The notes under the pieces: generated by a model
Databases searched by the model: none
The model's input: only the letters and a program-made list of their open reading frames with translations
Told to the model about the DNA's origin: nothing
Assembly (NCBI GenBank): GCA_964538995.1
Contig: CAZIFK010000001.1
Location: 5,827-69,826, forward strand
Direction: 5' to 3'
Origin: an uncultured bacterium
GTDB taxonomy: Bacteria; Fidelibacterota; Marinisomatia; Marinisomatales; TCS55
DNA length: 64,000 nt
Made by a program: the position numbers and the translations under genes
Shown here: positions 54,199-64,000 of the stretch, one piece after another
Position numbering within the stretch: the stretch's first letter is position 1
How the letters are laid out: the number at the start of each line of letters is the position of its first letter

Positions 54199-54370
54199 AC
54201 CTCTATCAGAACAATTGGGCTCTGCCCTGGCTAACATTCAAGATCTTTTTGATACAATTGCCAAAGTCTTCTTTAAACGATTGAAAGATAAACCGGGGAC
54301 AGGTTTCTTTTCTAAAATCGGTGACTCCTATTATAAATCCTATGAGGATGCAAAACGGAAAACTGAAGAT

Positions 54371-54418
54371 TGACCATTTGTGCACTGATAGGTTCAGGCT
54401 AAATTCCCCGCCTTATGA
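54371..54418 (+). promoter_or_regulatory. 48-bp conserved upstream element, copy A (sigma70-like TTGTGC-16-TAAATT inside)
   Basis: TGACCATTTGTGCACTGATAGGTTCAGGCTAAATTCCCCGCCTTATGA. About 38/48 identical to 55321-55368 by my hand alignment. It ends 22 nt before the ROK gene ATG. Confidence 0.5.
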
Positions 54419-54440
54419 TTTTAATCTGGAATCAAAACGT

Positions 54441-55295
54441 ATGATTGAACCAAATATTTCTGTTCTTGGGATTGACATGGGCGGTACAAAAATAAAAGCC
54501 GGTCTAGTCAAAAATGGTTTACTGGAAACAACCCAAACAACTACAGCAAATTCATCCGGTACAGAATCTGAAGTATTAGAGAAACTATTTGAGTTGATTC
54601 ATCATTTCGATTCGAATAAATATTCCGCTATCGGAGTAGGTGTTCCCAGTGTGGTTGATATAAAATATGGAATTGTGTACAACGTCCAGAATATCCCGTC
54701 GTGGAAGGAAGTCCATCTGAAATCAATCTTGGAAAACAAGTTCAATGTTCCTGTTTTCCTAAATAATGATGCTAACGTTTTCGTTTTAGGAGAAAAGTAT
54801 TTCGGTAAAGGAAAACCCTATGACAATATTGCCGGTGTGACACTTGGGACTGGATTGGGCACAGGGTTAGTATTAAACGGTCATTTGTTTTGTGGTAAAA
54901 ACTGCAGCGCTGGAGAATTTGGAAATATTCAGTACGAGGATGGTGTTATTGAAAACTACAGCAGTGGCCAGTTTTTCAAAAACGACTGTGGTTTGTCCGG
55001 TGAAGAAGTTTTCAAAAAAGCCAATACCGGGGATCAAAATGCATTAAGAATATTCAGTGAATATGGCTATCATCTGGGTAATGCTGTGAAAACCATTGTT
55101 TATGCCGTGGATCCGGAAATCATTATATTTGGTGGTTCTGTGGCAAAAGCATTTGAATTTTTTAAAGAAAGTCTTTTAAAACAATTCCACACACTTGTTT
55201 TCCCTAAAACGGCAGAAAAACTGATCATCACAGTTTCTAATACAAAGGATGTTGCAGTTCTGGGAGCTGCGGCACTTTCGTATGAAAATGGATAA
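54441..55295 (+). CDS. ROK-family sugar kinase (glucokinase-like)
   Basis: VLGIDMGGTKIKAG (phosphate-1), FLNNDANVFVLGE, AGVTLGTGLGTGL and GEFG. The track start at 54321 is GTG; the ATG at 54441 places the DxGGT motif at the usual distance from the N-terminus. Confidence 0.8.
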   Translation: MIEPNISVLGIDMGGTKIKAGLVKNGLLETTQTTTANSSGTESEVLEKLFELIHHFDSNKYSAIGVGVPSVVDIKYGIVYNVQNIPSWKEVHLKSILENKFNVPVFLNNDANVFVLGEKYFGKGKPYDNIAGVTLGTGLGTGLVLNGHLFCGKNCSAGEFGNIQYEDGVIENYSSGQFFKNDCGLSGEEVFKKANTGDQNALRIFSEYGYHLGNAVKTIVYAVDPEIIIFGGSVAKAFEFFKESLLKQFHTLVFPKTAEKLIITVSNTKDVAVLGAAALSYENG

Positions 55296-55430: not shown

Positions 55431-56672
55431 ATGAAAAAACTGAAACTTCACTGGCGCGTATTAATTGCCATGGCTTTGGGTACTATTTTTGCCCTGATTT
55501 TTAAAGAAAATTCCCTTTTTGTTGCACCGTTAGGAACAATATTCATGCGTTTATTGAAAATGATCATCGTTCCGCTAATTCTCTTTTCCATTACTTCCGG
55601 AGTTGCCAGTTTAGGCGACAGCAAAACATTAGGACGAATGGGAGCGAAAACATTTGTATACTATTTTGCAACTTCCATTTTTGCCATTCTTGTCGGATTA
55701 TTTTTAACCAATATCATCCAGCCTGGGGTAGGTGTTGAAATTTCCAGTTCAGTTCAATCATTTGATCCAAGCTCTTTGCAAAAACCATCATCTCTTGGGG
55801 GAATTATCATTCGTATGATTCCGCTAAACCCGATTTCAGCCATGGCTAACGGAGATATTTTAGGTGTCATTTTTTGGTCAATCGTTTTTGGGTTTGCAAT
55901 TACACGACTATCTGGTCGACCCCAGGAAATGCTGACTCATTTCTTCGACTATGGCTTTCAAGCCATGATGAAACTCACACATGGCATTATTGCACTTTTA
56001 CCCATTGGCGTTTTTGGATTAATTACAAAAGCGGTGGCCACAACCGGTTTTGAATTGTTTAGAGCAGTCGGGTTATATATGATCACAATCTTGACAGGTT
56101 TGATGATACACTGGTTGATAACGCTACCTATCATTTTCTATCTGTTCACACGCATTAATCCAATCAAGCATTTCAAAGCAATGGCTCCGGCGTTTATGAC
56201 AGCATTTTCTACTAGCTCGTCTGGAGCAACTCTTCCTGTTACAATGGATTGTGTTGAAAATGAAGTGGGCGTTTCGAATAAAACAACTAGTTTTGTACTA
56301 CCCTTGGGTGCAACCATTAATATGGACGGAACTGCATTATATGAATGCGCTGGTGTTTTATTTATTGCCCAGGCAATCGGTTTCGACCTGACTATTGCAC
56401 AACAGTTTGTTATTGTATTGACTGCCTTTTTAGCATCGGTGGGCGCTGCAGCCATCCCATCAGCAGGGTTGGTAATGATTTTTGTCGTATTAGATGCCGT
56501 TGGAATTAGTGATCATCCTGATGTAGCTATTATTGTGGGTACCATGCTGGCAGTGGACCGTCCTTTGGATATGCTTAGAACGATGGTCAATGTAACCAGT
56601 GACAGCATCGGAGCTGTTGTTATTGCTAAAAGTGAAGGCGAAACAGATCTCTATCCCGATAAAAAGAAATAA
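55431..56672 (+). CDS. dicarboxylate/amino acid:cation symporter (DAACS, GltP-like)
   Basis: FSTSSSGATLPV, GATINMDGTALYE and VDRPLDMLRTMVNVTSD are DAACS hallmark motifs. Confidence 0.85.
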   Translation: MKKLKLHWRVLIAMALGTIFALIFKENSLFVAPLGTIFMRLLKMIIVPLILFSITSGVASLGDSKTLGRMGAKTFVYYFATSIFAILVGLFLTNIIQPGVGVEISSSVQSFDPSSLQKPSSLGGIIIRMIPLNPISAMANGDILGVIFWSIVFGFAITRLSGRPQEMLTHFFDYGFQAMMKLTHGIIALLPIGVFGLITKAVATTGFELFRAVGLYMITILTGLMIHWLITLPIIFYLFTRINPIKHFKAMAPAFMTAFSTSSSGATLPVTMDCVENEVGVSNKTTSFVLPLGATINMDGTALYECAGVLFIAQAIGFDLTIAQQFVIVLTAFLASVGAAAIPSAGLVMIFVVLDAVGISDHPDVAIIVGTMLAVDRPLDMLRTMVNVTSDSIGAVVIAKSEGETDLYPDKKK

Positions 56673-56704
56673 CTTTTGTAACTATTCAGGTTTTTTTAAT
56701 GTGC

Positions 56705-56795
56705 GACGAGCATCCTTGCTTGTCGGTTTTTGGCATTACTTGTCGACTTTTTCGTATTTAAGTGAACGCATTTACGACAAGCAAGGAAGCTCGTC
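56705..56795. other. long-range inverted repeat (21-nt arms, 20/21 complementary, 49-nt spacer) in a gene-less 536-bp region
   Basis: GACGAGCATCCTTGCTTGTCG (56705-56725) versus CGACAAGCAAGGAAGCTCGTC (56775-56795). Read directly. Confidence 0.6.
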
Positions 56796-57091
56796 TGCCT
56801 TTGGCATGGCATATCGTACAATGTCCGAATAGAAACTAACTTTTCTTTATTCCAATGGAAATAAGTGTTGAAAACTGAACGAGCATCAGATAAATTCATA
56901 CTAGCTTTTTAACAATTCCCGCTTGAGACACGTTATTTCAGGATCTTCAATAAATTGCCCTTGGAGGCTAACTCTGTCGGCAAAAAACAGGCCTTTTCTG
57001 ATAAGTATCGGGATGAAGGAAGTTTGCTGTTGGTGGGAGGCCGCCACTCATGTTAAACATGATCCTGAAAAACACTCAATGCGGGATATTT

Positions 57092-57127
57092 AAAAACCCC
57101 GGCTTTTAGAAAAATGCCGGGGTTTTT
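57092..57127. terminator. strong bidirectional rho-independent terminator
   Basis: AAAAACCCCGGC-ttttagaaaaat-GCCGGGGTTTTT: a 7-bp GC-rich core stem extended by A/T runs on both sides, 82 nt downstream of the DnaB-like gene stop. Confidence 0.85.
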
Positions 57128-57208
57128 ATTTATAACAATTGGAGGGAACAAAAATGTGAATGAATGAGTGATTGATTGGATGATTAGATAGGTTTTTGAG
57201 ATATTCAA

Positions 57209-58195
57209 TTACTCAAATCTTGCATATTTTTCTACGAACTTTAAATTTACATATCCGGTTGGACCGTTTCGGCTTTTTGCTATGATTACCTCTGCCTTCC
57301 CCCTGTCAGTTTCATCAAGAGTATCTATCCATGGACGATAAAGAAGCATGATTGTATCGGCAGATTCTTCAATTTCAACCGCATGGTGAAAGTCACTCAA
57401 TACCGGTCGTTTGTTTTTTCGATCTTCGGGTTTTCGTGTTAATGAGGATGTAACGATAACAGGTATTTCCAGTTCTACTGCCATCTGTTTTAATAAATGA
57501 TAGGTAAGTTGTTGTGCATCTCGTTTTTGGATTGCTTGATTATTATCAATAATCAGAAGTTTAATATCGTGTTCTGCTTTCAGTCGTATGGCGTTATGTT
57601 TCATCTTCAGAGATGATAAAGATATCGTATCATCAATGAAAATTGAAGTTTCACCCAGCGTAGCCATACTCGATGTAAAAGCTTTCCATTTTGATTTTGC
57701 AAGTTTTCCTGTCCTTACTAAGTGTGTATCCACTTTTGCTTCCATGCACAATAAACGAAAAGCAATCTGTGTACTGGTCAAGTCCATAGAAAAAAATCCT
57801 ATGGGTACTTTTTCAACTACTGCTGCATGTCGCATAATGGTTAAAGCTAAAGCCGTTTTTCCCATACCCGGACTGCCTCCTATTATGTAAAGGTTCCCGG
57901 CATCGAGTCCGCAAAGCATTTCATCCAATTCCAGCAAACCGGTAGTTAAGTATGTTGGCTCTTGTTTCCCTGAATGTACTTCATTCAGTATTTCAATAAC
58001 TTGATTCAAATGTAAATCAATATGTTCAAAGCCTGTTTTGAGTCCATCCGTGTATAGCATCAAAAGTGACCTTTCAGCCTTCATCAAAGCTTGGTCATAG
58101 GAAAGTTTCTTATCAGCGGATATTGTTAATATATCCTCGCCAACCTGTTTAAGTTTTTCTCTTAATTCTTTTTCTGTTGGTTTTGATTTACTCAT
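57209..58195 (-). CDS. DnaB-family RecA-like ATPase, C-terminal domain plus linker only, with divergent catalytic motifs
   Basis: LTTGLLELDEMLCGLDAGNLYIIGGSPGMGKTALAL (Walker A), FSMDLT, LLIIDNNQ (Walker B), SSLTR, KRPVLSDFHHAVEIEESAD and IAKSRNGPTG. Only ~85 aa precede the ATPase core. AGGAG SD 6 nt before the ATG. Confidence 0.8.
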   Translation of the reverse strand: MSKSKPTEKELREKLKQVGEDILTISADKKLSYDQALMKAERSLLMLYTDGLKTGFEHIDLHLNQVIEILNEVHSGKQEPTYLTTGLLELDEMLCGLDAGNLYIIGGSPGMGKTALALTIMRHAAVVEKVPIGFFSMDLTSTQIAFRLLCMEAKVDTHLVRTGKLAKSKWKAFTSSMATLGETSIFIDDTISLSSLKMKHNAIRLKAEHDIKLLIIDNNQAIQKRDAQQLTYHLLKQMAVELEIPVIVTSSLTRKPEDRKNKRPVLSDFHHAVEIEESADTIMLLYRPWIDTLDETDRGKAEVIIAKSRNGPTGYVNLKFVEKYARFE

Positions 58196-58222
58196 ATCTT
58201 ACTCCTGTGTTTGCCTTATATT

Positions 58223-58477
58223 TTATGAGTTTGATTTATATGCTTTAACTAACTCCAATATCGATTTCAATGCCAATTCTGAATATTGTTCGATTGCCGT
58301 GAGCAAATGAGTGTCCATACAAGATTCGATCATATAATTGTTCAAACATTCCATTTTTTTAATATCAATGGTAGTAGACGTAATTTTCATTTCCATTTCA
58401 TTATGGTATGTTTCCATTGCTTCATTCTGAACTTTATCCCAAATAACCAGTTTCCGCTGTAGTTCTTTAAATTGCAT
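58223..58477 (-). CDS. 84-aa hypothetical protein (helical), middle gene of the operon
   Basis: The ATG at 58475-58477 is preceded by AAGAGGA (6-nt spacer), which starts right after the TAA of the AAA+ gene. The longer track ORF (to 58552) would overlap the AAA+ gene. No motif recognised. Confidence 0.55.
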   Translation of the reverse strand: MQFKELQRKLVIWDKVQNEAMETYHNEMEMKITSTTIDIKKMECLNNYMIESCMDTHLLTAIEQYSELALKSILELVKAYKSNS

Positions 58478-58490
58478 GAGAGATCCTCTT

Positions 58491-60389
58491 TTACGCTTGA
58501 AATCCAATTGTTTGATATTTACCATCAAACATACTGGCTGATTCGATTTCACAATACTTTATCAAATCTATCTGCATTAAAATTTTGCTTTGCCCTTTCC
58601 GGGATGCAGCTTCCGTAGCGGCATTTTTCACAATGATACTGATCTGTCCACCGGTGAGAGAATAAGATTTTGCCAGTGATGTTGTATCAATTTTTTTAGA
58701 TCCGGGGATTGAATTGGGCAAATGCAGTTTCCAAAGAGCAATTCTTTCCTCTATTCCGGGAAGTGGAAATTCCAATTTCAGGTGGAATCTTCGACTGAAG
58801 GCCAAATCAAGATTATCCCGTAGATTTGTTGTTGCTATCATGACTCCCTTAAGACGTTCAAATGCCTCCAAGAAAAGGTTTTGCATTGTATTGTACATTA
58901 CATCTACAGATGTATTCATTGTGCCAACACGTTTGCTTAAGAATTGATCCGCTTCGTTCAATAATAATACCGGTGGATTATCCGTTCTCCGTACGATCCT
59001 CTCAAAGACAGAAAACATTCTTCGGACGTTTTTCTCACTTTCCCCTACCCATTTGGATTGGATTCTGGAGATGTCGGTAATCAGTAACTTCTTACCGAGA
59101 GCATCGGCAATTGTCCCGGCTGCAAATGTTTTTCCTGTACCCGGTGAACCGTAAAATAACATCAACAATCCAGACTCTAATTTTTTATTCATTTTACCAA
59201 CTACGGATGTTTCTCCATCAAATAATCCCCAGGAAGAAAGAGTTTGATCTACATTATCCCGATATTGGAAAAGTGAGGTTTGGATTGTTTTTTTCATCTC
59301 CATCGGCAATATCAGATCTCGCATACTATGCGTTGGATTAAGTAGAGTAAACATATCATCACCTTTTAAGATTTGAGACAGCCGTTCAGCATCATTGATT
59401 GGTGTTTTCATAATGATTTGCCGGGTAATGTCTGGAGAGCTCCGCACTTCACCACCTTTGCTTCGGAAAAATATGCTTTCTGATAGCTCAACTAATCCAT
59501 GCTTAACAAGGTTTGATTCGATGGAAATGTATTTCCTGTTCATATACAACTCATGTTGGTCACTGCTTACGATACCGATGACTTCATCCGTATCTGTTTG
59601 ACGGCCTTCCAAATCCTCTTTAATAAGATACATGAGAATGACAGCTTCGTTGTGTTCTAATTTGTATTCATTGATAATATCCAATAGTGGAAATTCTCTT
59701 TCTGTCTTTTCCATTCGTCGTTCAATTCTTTCTTTCCATTCCATGGCTTTTAAGTAATCGTTGGCTGTACTTTCATCAAGTTCAGAGTCAAATCGACGAT
59801 TTACAAAACTGCAATAATTAAATTCACGTAATTGTTCAACGTATGAGAACCAGTCTGCTACAAACTCCTTATTTTTCAGATAGGGTTCATCAAACTTTAA
59901 ACTGACATCTTCAAATTCATTCAGTAGTTTTCTGGTGAAAGAACGATGGAAACAAATATCATATTCTAATAAATAATATTTGAAATATTTGATACTGGAA
60001 GAGGACTTTTGTTCTTTGAGGTTGAGTACCTGCTTTTTCTGTGTATAGAAAATGTTTTTCTTAAGTAAAGCAATAATTCTGTCTAGTTGTTCGATACAAG
60101 AATTCCGATCCGGAAAAACAGTATTCAATAATTCAATAGGATCAAATTGGAGTTTTCTCTCAACAATATGTTCAAACCAGGCAGAAGCAATAATAAGAAC
60201 ATCTTCGTGTTCAAGTGAATAATATGAGAAATCCGGATGCTGTGCGATTTTATAAGATAGTTCAGTTAATTCATCAGAATAAATATCCGACCTTGCTTTA
60301 TCAGAGTCCTCTTTCCTTCCAGAATTATGAGGAAAGAAGGAACCGATTTTCTGAAAGATGTTTTGTGGATTTGGGTTTTTTGGCACCAT
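58491..60389 (-). CDS. classic-clade AAA+ ATPase with a ~400-aa N-terminal region of unknown function
   Basis: LMLFYGSPGTGKTFAAG (Walker A), WVGESEKNVRRMF, VLLLNEADQF (Walker B with Asn for Asp), IATTN (sensor 1), LAFSRRF (second region of homology). AAGAGGAG SD 4 nt before the ATG. Confidence 0.85.
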   Translation of the reverse strand: MVPKNPNPQNIFQKIGSFFPHNSGRKEDSDKARSDIYSDELTELSYKIAQHPDFSYYSLEHEDVLIIASAWFEHIVERKLQFDPIELLNTVFPDRNSCIEQLDRIIALLKKNIFYTQKKQVLNLKEQKSSSSIKYFKYYLLEYDICFHRSFTRKLLNEFEDVSLKFDEPYLKNKEFVADWFSYVEQLREFNYCSFVNRRFDSELDESTANDYLKAMEWKERIERRMEKTEREFPLLDIINEYKLEHNEAVILMYLIKEDLEGRQTDTDEVIGIVSSDQHELYMNRKYISIESNLVKHGLVELSESIFFRSKGGEVRSSPDITRQIIMKTPINDAERLSQILKGDDMFTLLNPTHSMRDLILPMEMKKTIQTSLFQYRDNVDQTLSSWGLFDGETSVVGKMNKKLESGLLMLFYGSPGTGKTFAAGTIADALGKKLLITDISRIQSKWVGESEKNVRRMFSVFERIVRRTDNPPVLLLNEADQFLSKRVGTMNTSVDVMYNTMQNLFLEAFERLKGVMIATTNLRDNLDLAFSRRFHLKLEFPLPGIEERIALWKLHLPNSIPGSKKIDTTSLAKSYSLTGGQISIIVKNAATEAASRKGQSKILMQIDLIKYCEIESASMFDGKYQTIGFQA

Positions 60390-60511
60390 ATAACTCCTCT
60401 TTTTTAAAAGAAGTTATATGGTTAAAGAGTCAGATTGGGTCGTTATAATTTAATATTATTTAAAACGATTACGCTGAATATACAATAATGCTATAAATAA
60501 TACATGTGTGA

Positions 60512-62467
60512 CTAATTCATGAAAAAAGTTTCTTGTAGGTTCTGTTTTTCTCGAAATGAATCAACGACTTCAAATCTATCAAAAGTTTCTCCTGGTAACC
60601 TCCATCTTTCCAAAGCAAATCTTATCATATCTGTTTCACGTTGATCATTAATATGAGAAGATAGTTTACGAAAATAGTTTTTTGTTTTTCTTAAATAGTT
60701 TAATGTGTTTTCAACAAACTTTACTGAATCGTTATAAAATATTTCGAGATTTCGAATTTGTTTCATTTTAAAAAAACCGAGATTTGTTTCATTCATCCTT
60801 CGAATTTTTTCTTCAATAGAAAAATCTTTTAGTTTAATATTTTTTGATAGTCCCATTAAAACAAAATTGCCTAGTCTTCTTTTCTCGAGGTGTTTTTCCC
60901 CGAATTCAATTTTTAAATTATTAGATGCCCATATATGTTCTAGCGAAAGAACATCATTATTTTCGACACCTTTGTCAAGACGGCTAATCAATATATTTTC
61001 AATATTAAAACGGTGTCCATCTTGCAATTGGAGAAATTCCTCATACGAAGCAAGGAAAAACCTAATTCCACTCCAATAATAATAGTCTTCGGCTTCGTCT
61101 AAATCGATGGTTAAAGATTGTATAAATTTTTTCTCATTACAATGAATTTTTGCAAATTCGATTAATTCCAATTTTATCCATTGGAAGATATCACCTTCAA
61201 TTTGCTTATTACCATATTTACTATTACTATCACCACTCGTACTACCATGATAAAAATTATATGCCCATCCAAAAAGGTCACCCTGCTTGGAATCTGCTCT
61301 ACTGGTCACCTTTGGAAGAATATATACTCTGAAATTCACTTTCTCAATTATTTCAAGAATTTCAGCAACATTTTTGGGCTGATCCATTCTGGTCATAGTC
61401 GCTAAAAATAGAGGCAATATGGATGCATTTACACTATGACATCTCAGTCTCTTTAATACAGTCCCAATTGCTGCTTTCTCCTCGCCTTGAAAAGTGATTT
61501 CAAAATGTCCACCATTGAATAGAAATGAATAAAACTGAGAACATTGTTCTAGAAATTTTATAAAGTCATAAATTTTATCTACGTTGTTCTCTATCTCTAC
61601 CTCATTTGTTAAATATGGAGAATGAATAATTTTTAATTCATTATATACATACCAACTTTTTGATTTACTTGAATCATAAAAAACGATATAACAATTTCTT
61701 AAAAACCGATTTTCATCATCATTTGACACTATGCCTGCAATATTAAGATTTTTTTGAATATTCACCCATCTTTTGTTTATTGAATCACGAAGTGTGCTCT
61801 TATCGTAGATTGATGCATAATAAATGAAATAATTTTTGATTTTTTCTAATTCAGAAAGTTCTTTTCCTCTATTGTTTATTACCTCAAACATTATTCCAAG
61901 TTCTTTATCATTGTTTGGTGAAAAAACAAGAAATCCAAGTTTTTTCGTAACGGTATTTAAAATTGTATCTACGGAGATATTTTCTTCCTCTAACCAATTT
62001 TTAAAAAACACTTTAGCATCTAATAATCGTTGATGCGATTTTAATTGTGGATTTTCGTTTTCTTCGTCATTAATGATTCTATTATAAAAAAATATCCTTG
62101 TCTCTTCATTTGTTTCAAGAACAAACTTCTCATTTCCCCTTTTTCCCCGCTTTATAAAAGTTTCAATTATTTCTCTATATTTAATTTTATCGAAATTATA
62201 TATTTCCTTTAATAGAATAAGTATTGACGTTAGTCTTTGTTGGCCATCAACAATCTCAAATTTATATTTATCAATTGGTGTTACTACTATCGTGCCAGTG
62301 AAATGTAAATGATTTTTATTCGATATATTTTCTATATCTTTTCTCAAATCTTTAAGATGTTCTTCTTCCCATGTGTATCCTCGTTGGTAATCAGGGATTT
62401 TGAAATATCTATCAGTTATTATTTCTTCAATTGTAATTAATTCTTCGTTGAAATTATTTGTGTTCAT
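60512..62467 (-). CDS. GmrSD-type protein: N-terminal DUF262 (ParB-like NTPase) plus C-terminal DUF1524 (His-Me finger nuclease)
   Basis: FKIPDYQRGYTWEEEHLKDL and FEIVDGQQRLTS (DUF262). LSLEHIWASNN ... LGNFVLM ... KN (DUF1524 H-N-N layout). The gene is conspicuously AT-rich. Confidence 0.8.
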   Translation of the reverse strand: MNTNNFNEELITIEEIITDRYFKIPDYQRGYTWEEEHLKDLRKDIENISNKNHLHFTGTIVVTPIDKYKFEIVDGQQRLTSILILLKEIYNFDKIKYREIIETFIKRGKRGNEKFVLETNEETRIFFYNRIINDEENENPQLKSHQRLLDAKVFFKNWLEEENISVDTILNTVTKKLGFLVFSPNNDKELGIMFEVINNRGKELSELEKIKNYFIYYASIYDKSTLRDSINKRWVNIQKNLNIAGIVSNDDENRFLRNCYIVFYDSSKSKSWYVYNELKIIHSPYLTNEVEIENNVDKIYDFIKFLEQCSQFYSFLFNGGHFEITFQGEEKAAIGTVLKRLRCHSVNASILPLFLATMTRMDQPKNVAEILEIIEKVNFRVYILPKVTSRADSKQGDLFGWAYNFYHGSTSGDSNSKYGNKQIEGDIFQWIKLELIEFAKIHCNEKKFIQSLTIDLDEAEDYYYWSGIRFFLASYEEFLQLQDGHRFNIENILISRLDKGVENNDVLSLEHIWASNNLKIEFGEKHLEKRRLGNFVLMGLSKNIKLKDFSIEEKIRRMNETNLGFFKMKQIRNLEIFYNDSVKFVENTLNYLRKTKNYFRKLSSHINDQRETDMIRFALERWRLPGETFDRFEVVDSFREKQNLQETFFMN

Positions 62468-62579
62468 TTTTGTCCCCGATATTTACTTTTTGGTTTATAT
62501 TATCATTTTAGAAAGGTGAATTATCTTCTCTTACCCTGTATCATAAGATTTTTTTCGACAAAATTAAGTAGAAAAAAAC

Positions 62580-62687
62580 TTAACAATTATTATGTATCAT
62601 TCGTATTGATAATTTCTGTATCTCCACCATCGCCAATATATCTTACCCGCAATATTCCTTTAGTTTATTAATCAATTTACTCTTTCC
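62580..62687 (-). pseudogene. relic of the last ~36 codons of a second DUF2779-type gene (internal stop)
   Basis: 62617-62687 aligns with 62779-62848 (the 3' end of the intact gene) at roughly 85% identity by hand alignment. The minus-strand reading is GKSKLINKLKEYCG*DILAMVEIQKLSIRMIHNNC*, versus intact SEKSKLIYELKEYCGQDTMAMVEIHQYLAKHSNCHP*. Confidence 0.75.
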
Positions 62688-62740
62688 CCCGTCGTTCACA
62701 AATCAAATAATATTCTTCCGTAATTTTACGTGCCGTAATA

Positions 62741-64000
62741 TTACGGGTGACAATTGCTGTGCTTGGCTAAATATTGATGTATCTCCACCATCGCCATCGT
62801 ATCCTGACCACAATATTCTTTTAGTTCATAAATCAATTTACTCTTTTCACTACCGTAAGCCAATTGAATCATTTCATTCCAGGTAACCTGTGCTTCGATA
62901 CCATCGCTAACGTCCAGGGTCTCATAACTCATTGAAGGTACAATAACCGGCAGGACACTTTTAAGGCTGTTTGATCCCTTGAATCGATAATCCGTATAGT
63001 ATTTTCTAAAAATGACAAGTTGATCCCATAGGCGGTCAATGATTAACTTTAGTTGTTCTGAATACTCCGGGCACCACTGCGCGAGTTTGTTCATTATACC
63101 CTTTTCGAACCCCGCATTATAAGCAATCACTGATCCGGATTCTCCAATAGTTTTTGTCAACGATTCTGTTAATGATTTCCGTGGGTCATTTTCCGATTCG
63201 TGCAGATATTCAATATGCTCAAGATTCCCTTTCTTATCCATGATATGACAACTGTATTGGAATGGAAACTGCTCATAGGGATGCATGCCGTCAAACTTGG
63301 GAATCGCCGGGCTGTCTGTTTCAAAGTCAAGAAAATGAAGGGGATATTCAAGCTTGTTTAATTCTCCTGCTATGCCATTCCAATCAATTATCGGTTTTTG
63401 ACTTTCCAAGCTTCTTATATACTTCTTTTGATTTTCGTTAAGTGGAAACTCTGCAGATAGTTTATCAATACCTATCCTGTTATCTTCTATCAAATATTCT
63501 TTATCTGTCCAGCGTAACCTTGGAATATTGAAGATGGAATGTTCCGGTACATTTTTCCAGCAGTATCCAACAAACGGACAATCGTAGGGATTGCTGCAAT
63601 GTTGTCCAATAAGAACATTTGGTTCGGACTTATCCAACATGGATTTATATTCTGAAAGTTTTTTAGGAACTGATGTTAATACAGCATTCACTGGTTCTGT
63701 GATATCTTCCGTTCTGAAAAGATTGGTGAGATCAGGATACACACAATCACGATTAATATGTTTCAGAAATACACGCTTCATTTCTAACCCACATCCCTGG
63801 AGAACCCACGTCTGCACAGCCACATCATGAATATTGACTTCTTTAACGTCGGTTGAAGATTTCACCTCGATCATATTCCAACTGCCCAAATCATTCCGCA
63901 GAATAATGTCTGGTCGGACAAGAACATTCTCATAAATAAAACATCCTTCGAAAATGACATCTGTAGAATTATCCAATGCTTTTTTCGTTTGTTTAATAGC
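62741..64000 (-). CDS. DUF2779-family protein (Cas4/RecB-like PD-(D/E)XK nuclease N-terminal part plus DUF2779 C-terminal domain), 5' end outside the window
   Basis: RPDIILRNDLGSWNMIEVKSS (D...E-x-K), Cys cluster CSNPYDCPFVGYCW, LHFLDFETDSPAIPKF...FPFQYSCH. The frame stays open upstream of the track's TTG start (…AIKQTKKAL-DNSTDV) to position 64000. Confidence 0.7.
   Translation of the reverse strand, partial: AIKQTKKALDNSTDVIFEGCFIYENVLVRPDIILRNDLGSWNMIEVKSSTDVKEVNIHDVAVQTWVLQGCGLEMKRVFLKHINRDCVYPDLTNLFRTEDITEPVNAVLTSVPKKLSEYKSMLDKSEPNVLIGQHCSNPYDCPFVGYCWKNVPEHSIFNIPRLRWTDKEYLIEDNRIGIDKLSAEFPLNENQKKYIRSLESQKPIIDWNGIAGELNKLEYPLHFLDFETDSPAIPKFDGMHPYEQFPFQYSCHIMDKKGNLEHIEYLHESENDPRKSLTESLTKTIGESGSVIAYNAGFEKGIMNKLAQWCPEYSEQLKLIIDRLWDQLVIFRKYYTDYRFKGSNSLKSVLPVIVPSMSYETLDVSDGIEAQVTWNEMIQLAYGSEKSKLIYELKEYCGQDTMAMVEIHQYLAKHSNCHP

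Follow-up and report, generated by a model that had tools for sequence, protein, structure and literature searches.

It is well known that defence genes cluster in mosaic islands, and GmrSD enzymes are type IV, modification-dependent restriction systems. Mosaic defence islands are headed by BrxR-family regulators (PMC9122601), and CapW senses single-stranded DNA (ssDNA) (PMC11662680). The Hma-embedded HEC-01 to HEC-09 are defence genes embedded within multi-gene systems, among them HEC-06, a GmrSD-like protein whose defence activity has been validated (bioRxiv 10.1101/2024.01.29.577857). Here, we analyzed the right end of a 64,000-nucleotide stretch of DNA (the window; positions 5827-69826 of contig C1) from a 3.1-Mb metagenome-assembled genome (MAG) of 302 contigs, which belongs to an uncultured bacterium of the Fidelibacterota; the contig runs 3,990 bp further. 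A preliminary description had proposed that a block of genes at this end, among them a GmrSD gene, is a variable defence locus. We consider it likely that positions 57134-64000 and the next 3.3 kb form one accessory island, which consists of a conserved frame and two cassette slots and has been inserted between the core genes that encode an SDF symporter and HflX.

Insertion site and boundaries of the island

The window ends within the gene of a DUF2779 nuclease. In the contig extension (L001), from which all positions beyond 64000 were read as extrapolated window coordinates, three further co-directional genes encoding an orphan protein of 221 amino acids (aa), a Fic protein and a WYL regulator are found upstream of the DUF2779 gene, followed by hflX, which the contig end truncates to its 3' part. 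The island comprises eight co-directional minus-strand genes and spans ~10.2 kb (~57134-67340) between the SDF symporter gene and hflX. The five minus-strand genes that had been reported within the window (DnaB-like, 84-aa, AAA+, GmrSD and DUF2779) were borne out by the map of open reading frames (ORFs) and by family scans, and the right boundary, which had been predicted to lie outside the window, is hflX, 3.3 kb past window position 64000. The features of the locus are the following:

55431-56672, plus strand: SDF symporter (sodium:dicarboxylate), core gene and left flank (PF00375, E 6e-123)
56673-57208, no strand: gene-less spacer of 536 bp, mostly native SDF/hflX intergenic DNA
57209-58195, minus strand: DnaB_C-only ATPase, 328 aa, frame gene (PF03796, E 3.6e-69)
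58223-58477, minus strand: 84-aa protein, frame gene (ORF; family search negative)
58491-60389, minus strand: AAA ATPase, 632 aa, frame gene (PF00004, E 6e-23)
60449-62780, no strand: slot B, cassette region (counterpart absent from the homologous contigs L168, L169 and L040 by blastn)
60512-62467, minus strand: GmrSD, 651 aa, cargo (PF03235, 112.8 bits, E 3e-32)
~62580-62740, minus strand: DUF2779 relic (3' end, last ~50 codons; similarity to the intact DUF2779 3' end)
62741-64204, minus strand (the window ends at 64000): DUF2779 nuclease, 487 aa, frame gene (PF11074, E ~1e-42)
64212-64877, minus strand: orphan, 221 aa, frame gene (family search negative)
64943-65788, minus strand (L001 10770-11615): Fic, 281 aa, cargo of slot A (PF02661)
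65999-67015, minus strand: WYL regulator, 338 aa, frame gene (HTH-WYL-WCX domains)
from 67341: hflX, right flank (contig extension)

The insertion site was assessed in 40 relatives, all of which contain SDF and HflX homologues. The two genes lie on one contig in 25 of the 40, always convergent and at most 5.5 kb apart; they are directly adjacent (gap <500 bp) in 16 relatives and separated by 1.6-5.5 kb in 9. No island genes were found at the SDF/hflX site outside the genus among the sampled relatives. The proposed variability of the locus is thus supported, as the site is empty in these 16 relatives and its contents differ between the same-genus genomes G004 and G001 and the contigs L168, L169 and L040.

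The left boundary was determined by comparison with an empty site. A conserved block is found inside the spacer (56885-57158), and this block includes a terminator-like hairpin (inverted repeat, 57086-57133). The 285-bp intergenic region of the empty site in G018, a genome of a different genus with a 92% identical SDF gene, matches 56885-57093 at 90%, and its gapped alignment extends to 57158 and includes the hairpin; intergenic DNA of G004 aligns to the spacer at 90.6% over 287 nt. Because the empty site of G018 aligns at 90%, the spacer is mostly native intergenic DNA outside the island, whose left edge appears to lie between ~57134 and the DnaB_C stop codon at 57209. The 536-bp spacer of the preliminary description is real and gene-less, but most of it does not belong to the island.

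With 87-91% identity across genera (G018, G004) and 73% to G009, the conserved spacer block (~210-270 nt) shows an unusual degree of conservation for non-coding DNA. It ends with the hairpin, the stem sequence of which varies among genomes, and might encode a small RNA or a short protein or else serve both flanking genes as a bidirectional terminator region. No tRNA or Rfam match was found in the spacer or at the island ends, no flanking direct repeats or att repeats beyond chance matches were detected at the island ends, and no integrase or transposase is present among the genes of the island in the present genome. The sequence that follows the terminator (57134-57150) was considered as a putative remnant of the 3' end of hflX, but this was dismissed, as only ~12 nt are alike, which is too short to claim.

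The larger SDF/hflX gaps in other genera contain lipid, regulatory, secreted-protein and metabolic genes, and no defence genes were found in the gaps that were read (L025, L027 and L029, from G012, G010 and G038, respectively). In these three, the junction holds gene blocks of 3-5 kb with genes for HMG-CoA reductase, acyltransferase, FAD oxidase, SDR, aminotransferase, diacylglycerol kinase, LuxR and a BNR protein sorted by the type IX secretion system. The junction was therefore rejected as an order-wide defence hotspot, the three inserts examined being metabolic, regulatory and secreted-protein genes. Two SDF alleles, with 71-95% and 40-49% identity to the present SDF, respectively, are found beside hflX within one family and even within one genus, which suggests xenologous replacement of the transporter gene. 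Furthermore, only a ~38-codon remnant of the ROK kinase gene (54321-55295) is left in G018 (L014) between a YyaL-like gene and SDF, so that the gene adjoining the left flank of the island is also variable.

Frame and slot structure

Alignment with homologous contigs shows that the island is composed of a conserved frame and two apparent exchange slots with unrelated contents. The frame order WYL, orphan, DUF2779, AAA, 84-aa and DnaB_C is fixed in the present genome and in the metagenome contigs L168 and L169, where five of the six frame genes are 77-89% identical at the amino acid level; the identity of the orphan is 83% in L168 and 36% in L169. L169 contains WYL, a 195-aa protein, DUF2779, PDDEXK_4 (452 aa), AAA (89%), the 84-aa protein and DnaB_C. 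In L168, WYL is followed by proteins of 55 and 235 aa, an MBL/RMMBL protein, a 223-aa protein, the orphan and DUF2779, and then by two unknowns of 220 and 412 aa, AAA (88%), the 84-aa protein and DnaB_C (80%). The order in L040 is WYL, orphan (71%), DUF2779, a GmrSD of 574 aa that is 34% identical to the present one, and AAA (80%), followed by other genes.

Nucleotide homology to L168 covers positions 57417-60448, 62781-64918 and 66098-67037, and the gaps in homology correspond exactly to GmrSD with the adjacent relic (60449-62780) and to Fic (~64919-66097). According to blastn against L168, L169 and L040, homology ends at 60448/60462 and returns at 62768-62781, which defines the edges of slot B. 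This slot, located between DUF2779 and AAA, is occupied by the present GmrSD, by an unrelated GmrSD in L040, by PDDEXK_4 in L169 and by unknowns in L168, and slot A, located between WYL and the orphan, holds Fic here and other genes or none in the other contigs. Within the genus (G001, G004), different genes are found between the SDF and hflX ends of the island, namely VapBC, PDDEXK_4, MNT/HEPN, IS21 and IS4. Of the five genes in the window, which had previously been described as a variable defence locus, DnaB_C, the 84-aa gene, AAA and DUF2779 are found in the same order elsewhere at 77-89% identity. By this comparison GmrSD and, beyond the window, Fic appear to be the only swappable cargo, and the other four genes in the window belong to the conserved frame. 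Since the far flank of L040 maps to contig C20 of the present genome, the frame resides at different chromosomal sites in different lineages.

The pseudogenised fragment that had been noticed between GmrSD and DUF2779 is real and was identified as a relic of the DUF2779 3' end. It begins directly past the stop codon of the intact DUF2779 gene, and its core (62617-62685, minus strand), which was also detected as a direct repeat, is identical to the intact DUF2779 3' end at 59 of 69 nt. Similarity of the relic extends to the 3' ends of the DUF2779 genes in L168 (82%) and L169 (77%), and its reading frame (..GGKSKLINKLKEYCG, a stop codon, DILAMVEIQKLS..) contains in-frame stops. It represents the 3' end of a second DUF2779 gene and the scar of a recombination event at the edge of slot B. 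In the proposed mechanism, unrelated cassettes would be exchanged in slots A and B by recombination.

A common ORF of ~125 aa and the tail of another (..VWGKLVVKERTRLMHLIF..) are located upstream of WYL in L168 (1-583) and L169 (~420-965). No Pfam family was found for these ORFs, and the tail is interrupted by stop codons in L169; the ORFs may be the remains of a mobility gene.

The G+C content of the GmrSD gene is 0.288 (0.219 at third codon positions), which corresponds to the 0.4th percentile of the 1113 ORFs of at least 300 aa in this genome (G+C content 0.386), and only 0.2% of genome windows of equal length are as AT-rich. The G+C contents of DnaB_C (0.374), AAA (0.368) and DUF2779 (0.402) are native-like. 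Accordingly, the patchy composition that had been ascribed to the block holds for GmrSD, but not for these three genes. The four spot counts reported at that time (18, 12, 28 and 29 G+C per 60 nt) are all exact; as 19% of the 60-nt lines of the window have 18 or fewer G+C, the count of 18/60 alone is uninformative. The best relative of GmrSD among 5.8 billion proteins is 55% identical, and the named relatives are mostly from Bacteroidota. The composition of GmrSD fits a recent import from an unsampled AT-rich donor. Together with the fragmentation of the MAG into 302 contigs, this foreign composition could also point to an assembly or binning artefact, in which foreign DNA was joined to the MAG contig. 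We consider such an artefact extremely improbable, as both flanks are present on one contig, WYL beside hflX and DnaB_C beside SDF recur in the independently assembled genomes of three further species of this genus, and the frame genes share the composition of the genome itself.

Within the genus, SDF and hflX are found on separate contigs in all five other species. One contig of G004 contains, from the left side, SDF, DnaB_C (85%), a 167-aa protein and IS21, and another contains PDDEXK_4, VapC, VapB, DUF2779 (85%), the orphan (42-45%), Fic (93%), HEPN/MNT, WYL (83%) and hflX. The order in G001 is Fic, WYL, an IS4 transposase and hflX, and WYL adjoins hflX in G003. No relatives of AAA and the 84-aa protein were found in G001-G004 by genome search (AAA E <= 1e-80) and in the loci read, and the loci that were read in G001 and G004 contain no GmrSD.

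In comparison with G004, the ratio of nonsynonymous to synonymous divergence (dN/dS) ranges from 0.06 to 0.16 for the six computable genes, with 0.16 for DnaB_C, showing that the computable genes are under purifying selection. For the orphan, which is 45% identical to its G004 counterpart at the amino acid level, the synonymous sites are saturated and dN/dS is not computable. The dS values are 0.19 for Fic, 0.46-0.55 for the flanks and DnaB_C, and 0.99 for WYL and DUF2779. This mosaic pattern of synonymous divergence directly indicates that alleles have recombined. The two species share a Fic protein at 93% identity, and its dS lies far below that of the core flanks (~0.5), which suggests a recent exchange of the Fic cassette within the genus. 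The DUF2779 gene of G004 (L022 2190-2260) contains a TAA ~25 codons before the normal end, near the last exonuclease motif, with homology continuing beyond; this premature stop means that the gene has been inactivated recently or that the sequence contains an error.

The distribution of the frame genes was analyzed in 301 genomes of the phylum, with statistics that are not corrected for phylogeny. AAA is found in 21 of these genomes (~7%), this type of WYL in 26 and this type of DUF2779 in 21. AAA and WYL occur together in 14 genomes, AAA only in 7 and WYL only in 12 (odds ratio 45, Fisher p = 2e-12), and AAA and DUF2779 occur together in 7 (odds ratio 9.5, p = 2e-4). WYL is located upstream of and co-directional with AAA in 14 of 19 distinct loci, with DUF2779 within reach in 12 of 19. 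Members of the AAA family (~630 aa) bear names from Marinimicrobia, Calditrichota and Cloacimonadota; a profile scan of the genome contigs with an AAA alignment gave mostly generic AAA and Cdc48 matches and was useful for L048 and L049. The latter, a Dojkabacteria contig, links WYL, AAA (45% identity) and DUF2779. A small protein follows AAA in L047, L160 and G146, and in L047 AAA is preceded by a different, unrelated DnaB_C-only ATPase. The neighbours of AAA genes include the restriction genes GmrSD-like, McrBC, MmeI-type restriction-modification, REase-ARP and PDDEXK nucleases as well as RhuM, Fic, MBL-fold hydrolases, PIN, MNT/HepT and toxin-antitoxin pairs.

This association raises the question whether the six frame genes together make up a single, so far undescribed defence system and are more than frequent neighbours, which we regard as a real possibility without favouring it. 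In such a system, WYL would sense infection, AAA, the 84-aa protein and DnaB_C would act as an ATP-driven sensor or remodeller, the orphan and DUF2779 would be the nuclease effector, and embedded cassettes would be tolerated, as in Hma and BREX. The fixed order in L168, L169 and the present genome, with intergenic gaps of 13 nt (AAA/84-aa), 27 nt (84-aa/DnaB_C) and 7 nt (orphan/DUF2779), the odds ratio of AAA and WYL and the linkage reaching even into Dojkabacteria argue for a unit, as do the second DnaB_C-only ATPase adjoining AAA in L047 and the purifying selection on every gene with a computable dN/dS. However, the parts are also found separately, as seen from the 12 genomes with WYL but no AAA and the 7 with AAA but no WYL; G004 has DnaB_C, DUF2779 and WYL but no AAA at E <= 1e-80, L040 carries other genes after AAA, and DnaB_C orthologues were found only in the present genome, G004, L168 and L169. 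Moreover, the case for a coherent system is built on sequence comparison.

The same genes could, alternatively, form a DNA-damage or repair module, that is, a WYL regulon of the DriD/PafBC kind in a recombination-prone spot that gathers defence genes. Regulators of the WYL type detect ssDNA and govern the response to DNA damage (PMC11662680, PMC12041258), JCVI-syn3.0 has a DUF2779 gene that is quasi-essential (PMC13621843), and the native composition and low dN/dS of the frame genes would agree with such a role. The patchy distribution of the frame in ~7% of the phylum genomes, often at contig ends, its absence from most of the family, its differing chromosomal sites and its constant company of restriction enzymes and toxin-antitoxin pairs make this explanation unlikely.

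Predicted functions of the island proteins

The accessory island with its frame and slots is headed by the WYL gene, the first of the eight minus-strand genes, upstream of and co-directional with the rest. The encoded regulator contains HTH_11 (24.7 bits, cut-off 25), WYL (37.0 vs 21.8) and WCX (48.6 vs 23.9) domains in this order and matches the PADLOC WYL model at E 2e-26; by its domain order it has the predicted architecture of BrxR and CapW (winged helix-turn-helix, WYL, WCX). Its sequence similarity to WYL proteins of solved structure is low (E ~1e-6) and limited to the WCX part. The 325 bp upstream of the gene (L001 12843-13167, extrapolated 67016-67340) contain three or more short hairpins formed by palindromes with a GC core, such as GAACTCCTAGGGAGTTC, AGACTCTATAGGAGTCT and CAACCCCTAACAGGGTTG, which may be candidate operators of the WYL repressor or elements resembling repetitive extragenic palindromes. 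The regulator would repress the operon-like downstream genes and be released on a ligand that arises from infection or DNA damage.

GmrSD is apparently an intact type IV restriction enzyme. The N-terminal domain (PF03235; DUF262, GmrSD_N) reaches 112.8 bits against a cut-off of 33.2, with DGQQR at residue 74, and the His-Me motif EHIWA(510)..GNFVL(533) at residues 510-537 is intact. For the last 232 aa, the GmrSD_C model (PF07510) gives 16.4 bits, with a cut-off of 23, and a precomputed PF07510 match is present in some relatives that are ~50% identical. The best PADLOC match is HEC-06 (E 8e-44), covering model positions 4-381 of 558. Mutation of the DGQQR and E-H nuclease motifs abolishes defence by HEC-06 and BrxU (bioRxiv 10.1101/2024.01.29.577857). 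The enzyme would restrict phage DNA with modified cytosines.

The Fic protein matches the PADLOC models SoFic (E 4e-32) and PDC-S04 (E 1e-31). Its core motif HPFGDGNGRIGR is intact and an N-terminal inhibitory TNAIEG (class II) is present; the SoFic equivalog NF046030 is not reached (42.6 bits vs a cut-off of 550). Fic could be a toxic SoFic-like AMPylase that acts by abortive infection and is restrained by the inhibitory helix.

DnaB_C is 45-46% identical to the full-length DnaB (464 aa) encoded on contig C165 of the same genome, and it lacks the N-terminal domain, since the alignment begins at position ~103-112 of DnaB. It retains Walker A (GSPGMGKT), the IID motif with the Walker B Asp and KSRNG, the Arg of which aligns with R420 of Bst DnaB. 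The motifs SLEMS, DYLQL, SQLSR and SDLRESG are altered to SMDLT, DNNQA, SSLTR and SDFHHAV, respectively; the roles of the SLEMS Glu, the DLRESG loop and R420 are those described for Bst DnaB. The TIGR00665 equivalog is not reached (271.9 bits vs a cut-off of 385). By domain layout, equivalog score and DNA-loop motifs, DnaB_C is predicted not to be a replicative DnaB. The notion that it is an obligate partner of AAA was rejected as a general rule, since it is absent from L040, L042 and L045; no significant similarity to DnaB_C was found among the AAA neighbours in L040 and L044.

A helicase-like protein next to an ATPase and a nuclease might be a leftover from the decayed replication module of a mobile element (a prophage, satellite or integrative and conjugative element remnant) without a defence role. 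DnaB_C matches phage DnaB families (phrog_19, E 1e-46), the frame is found at differing chromosomal sites, IS elements are present in the G001 and G004 islands, and a member of the AAA family is found beside prophage portal and terminase genes (L170, IMGVR_UViG_3300009127_000359). Yet this contig carries the only full-length AAA relative among 2.9 million contigs of a viral collection, directly after a McrB/McrC pair at a prophage edge, and the island contains no integrase, initiator, capsid or att repeat. In addition, DnaB_C is closest to cellular DnaB and under purifying selection despite the loss of its N-terminal domain and of the aligned DNA-loop residues. We therefore regard a decayed element as very unlikely.

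For the 84-aa protein, the longest version of which (from GTG) has 109 aa, no family was found in Pfam, NCBIfam, PADLOC and PHROGs. Homologues directly after AAA are present in L168 (83%), L169 (77%), G146 (66-81%, in two tblastn segments), L047 (46%) and L160 (30%).

In the AAA protein, an N-terminal orphan region of ~400 aa precedes a classic-clade module with Walker A GSPGTGKT (residue 414), TTN and SRRF. In its Walker B motif, LLLNE(AD), Asn478 (58956-58958) replaces the usual Asp and is invariant across 13 sequences in an alignment of 13 relatives that are 46-80% identical to the present AAA. Relatives in PDB (Cdc48/p97/VAT, E 1e-28) cover the AAA module alone. An AlphaFold model of the N-terminal ~400 aa (pLDDT 72, pTM 0.45) gave no Foldseek match in PDB at E < 1, with faint winged-helix matches (DnaD-N, MarR). 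The similarity to IetA (PADLOC E 4e-24) covers positions 118-305 of 374, and NCBIfam IteA scores 84.7 bits against a cut-off of 510.

The DUF2779 family combines a Cas4-like PD-(D/E)xK domain with a DEDD-type 3'-5' exonuclease (PMC3985635, PMC13621843). The present protein (PF11074, 145.6 bits vs a cut-off of 23.3) matches PADLOC Cas4 at E 2e-05 over residues 12-217 and contains D..EVK (residue 113), four Cys (14, 203, 209, 215) and DFET (residue 293). The orphan family has ~50 members, all metagenomic, with invariant D97, E126, E128, D139 and K142. The model of the orphan (pLDDT 90) has its best PDB matches with YaeQ, NucC and EcoT38I at E 0.01-0.1, a weak hint that it may have a restriction-endonuclease-like fold.

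The defence-type content that had been proposed for the locus was corroborated by the clustering of GmrSD, the SoFic-like Fic and the BrxR-type WYL within 7 kb, and the frame genes may themselves serve in defence. Several observations weigh against an accessory defence island. The defence function is deduced from genomic context and association; AAA, the 84-aa protein, DnaB_C, DUF2779 and the orphan match no defence system, the frame genes give partial PADLOC matches only (IetA, Cas4) and never reach NCBIfam cut-offs, and WYL regulators also govern DNA-damage responses that are not antiviral. The composition of the frame genes is native-like, the island ends lack att repeats and a tRNA, an integrase gene is absent, and the same-genus genomes are fragmented at precisely this locus, which makes full islands unreadable. 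Finally, the co-occurrence figures are uncorrected for phylogeny and many matches lie on short contigs.

Comparison with described defence systems

We tentatively put forward, as the more speculative part of our interpretation, that WYL, the orphan, DUF2779, AAA, the 84-aa protein and DnaB_C may constitute a multi-gene immune system that has so far not been described, in bacteria of the FCB group and of candidate phyla, and that takes up and exchanges single-gene defences in its two built-in slots. Such a system would couple the classic-clade AAA ATPase, which has Asn in Walker B, and a ring of the helicase-like DnaB_C to a nuclease of the Cas4/DEDD type. The frame scaffold is a candidate for an undescribed system, and AAA with the 84-aa protein and DnaB_C, the orphan with DUF2779, and the slot unknowns of L168 and L040 are candidate defence genes.

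The AAA module resembles IetA of IetAS, but the match is limited to this module, the N-terminal 400 aa are unrelated and the island contains no gene for an IetS-like protease. Fic shares the Fic motif and the inhibitory TxxxEG helix (class II) with SoFic and PDC-S04; in contrast to SoFic, it has 281 instead of ~360 aa, and it covers the SoFic model in part and stays below the equivalog score. Like GmrSD, BrxU and SspE (PMC4619093, PMC8565348), the present GmrSD is a single chain of ~650 aa in which a long linker separates an N-terminal DUF262 domain carrying DGQQR from a C-terminal motif that resembles a His-Me finger (EHIWA...GN), whereas its C-terminal domain is under the Pfam GmrSD_C threshold and its best relative is only 55% identical.

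The locus resembles the BrxR/CapW islands (PMC9122601, PMC11662680) in its upstream, co-directional HTH_11-WYL-WCX regulator, in the short palindromes within the 325 bp upstream of the regulator gene and in its mosaic content, which includes a type IV restriction enzyme. It differs in that no BREX, CBASS or other named multi-gene system is located downstream. BrxR relatives have been reported almost only in Proteobacteria, whereas the host here is a Fidelibacterota lineage. The locus is a natural example of cassette exchange in a WYL-headed locus, from a marine-type uncultured phylum in which immunity is almost unstudied.

As in Hma with its HEC genes, a hotspot between conserved frame genes holds varying single-gene defences across genomes, and the present GmrSD matches best the HEC-06 models and keeps the DGQQR and E-H nuclease motifs. 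Unlike in Hma, the frame is without the helicase-methylase-ATPase trio, and its genes are not known defence genes. While defence islands as such are well known, they less often resolve into a fixed scaffold and two precisely bounded slots with a visible swap scar. As with Hma, searches anchored on the frame genes should bring to light further single-gene defences located in the slots.

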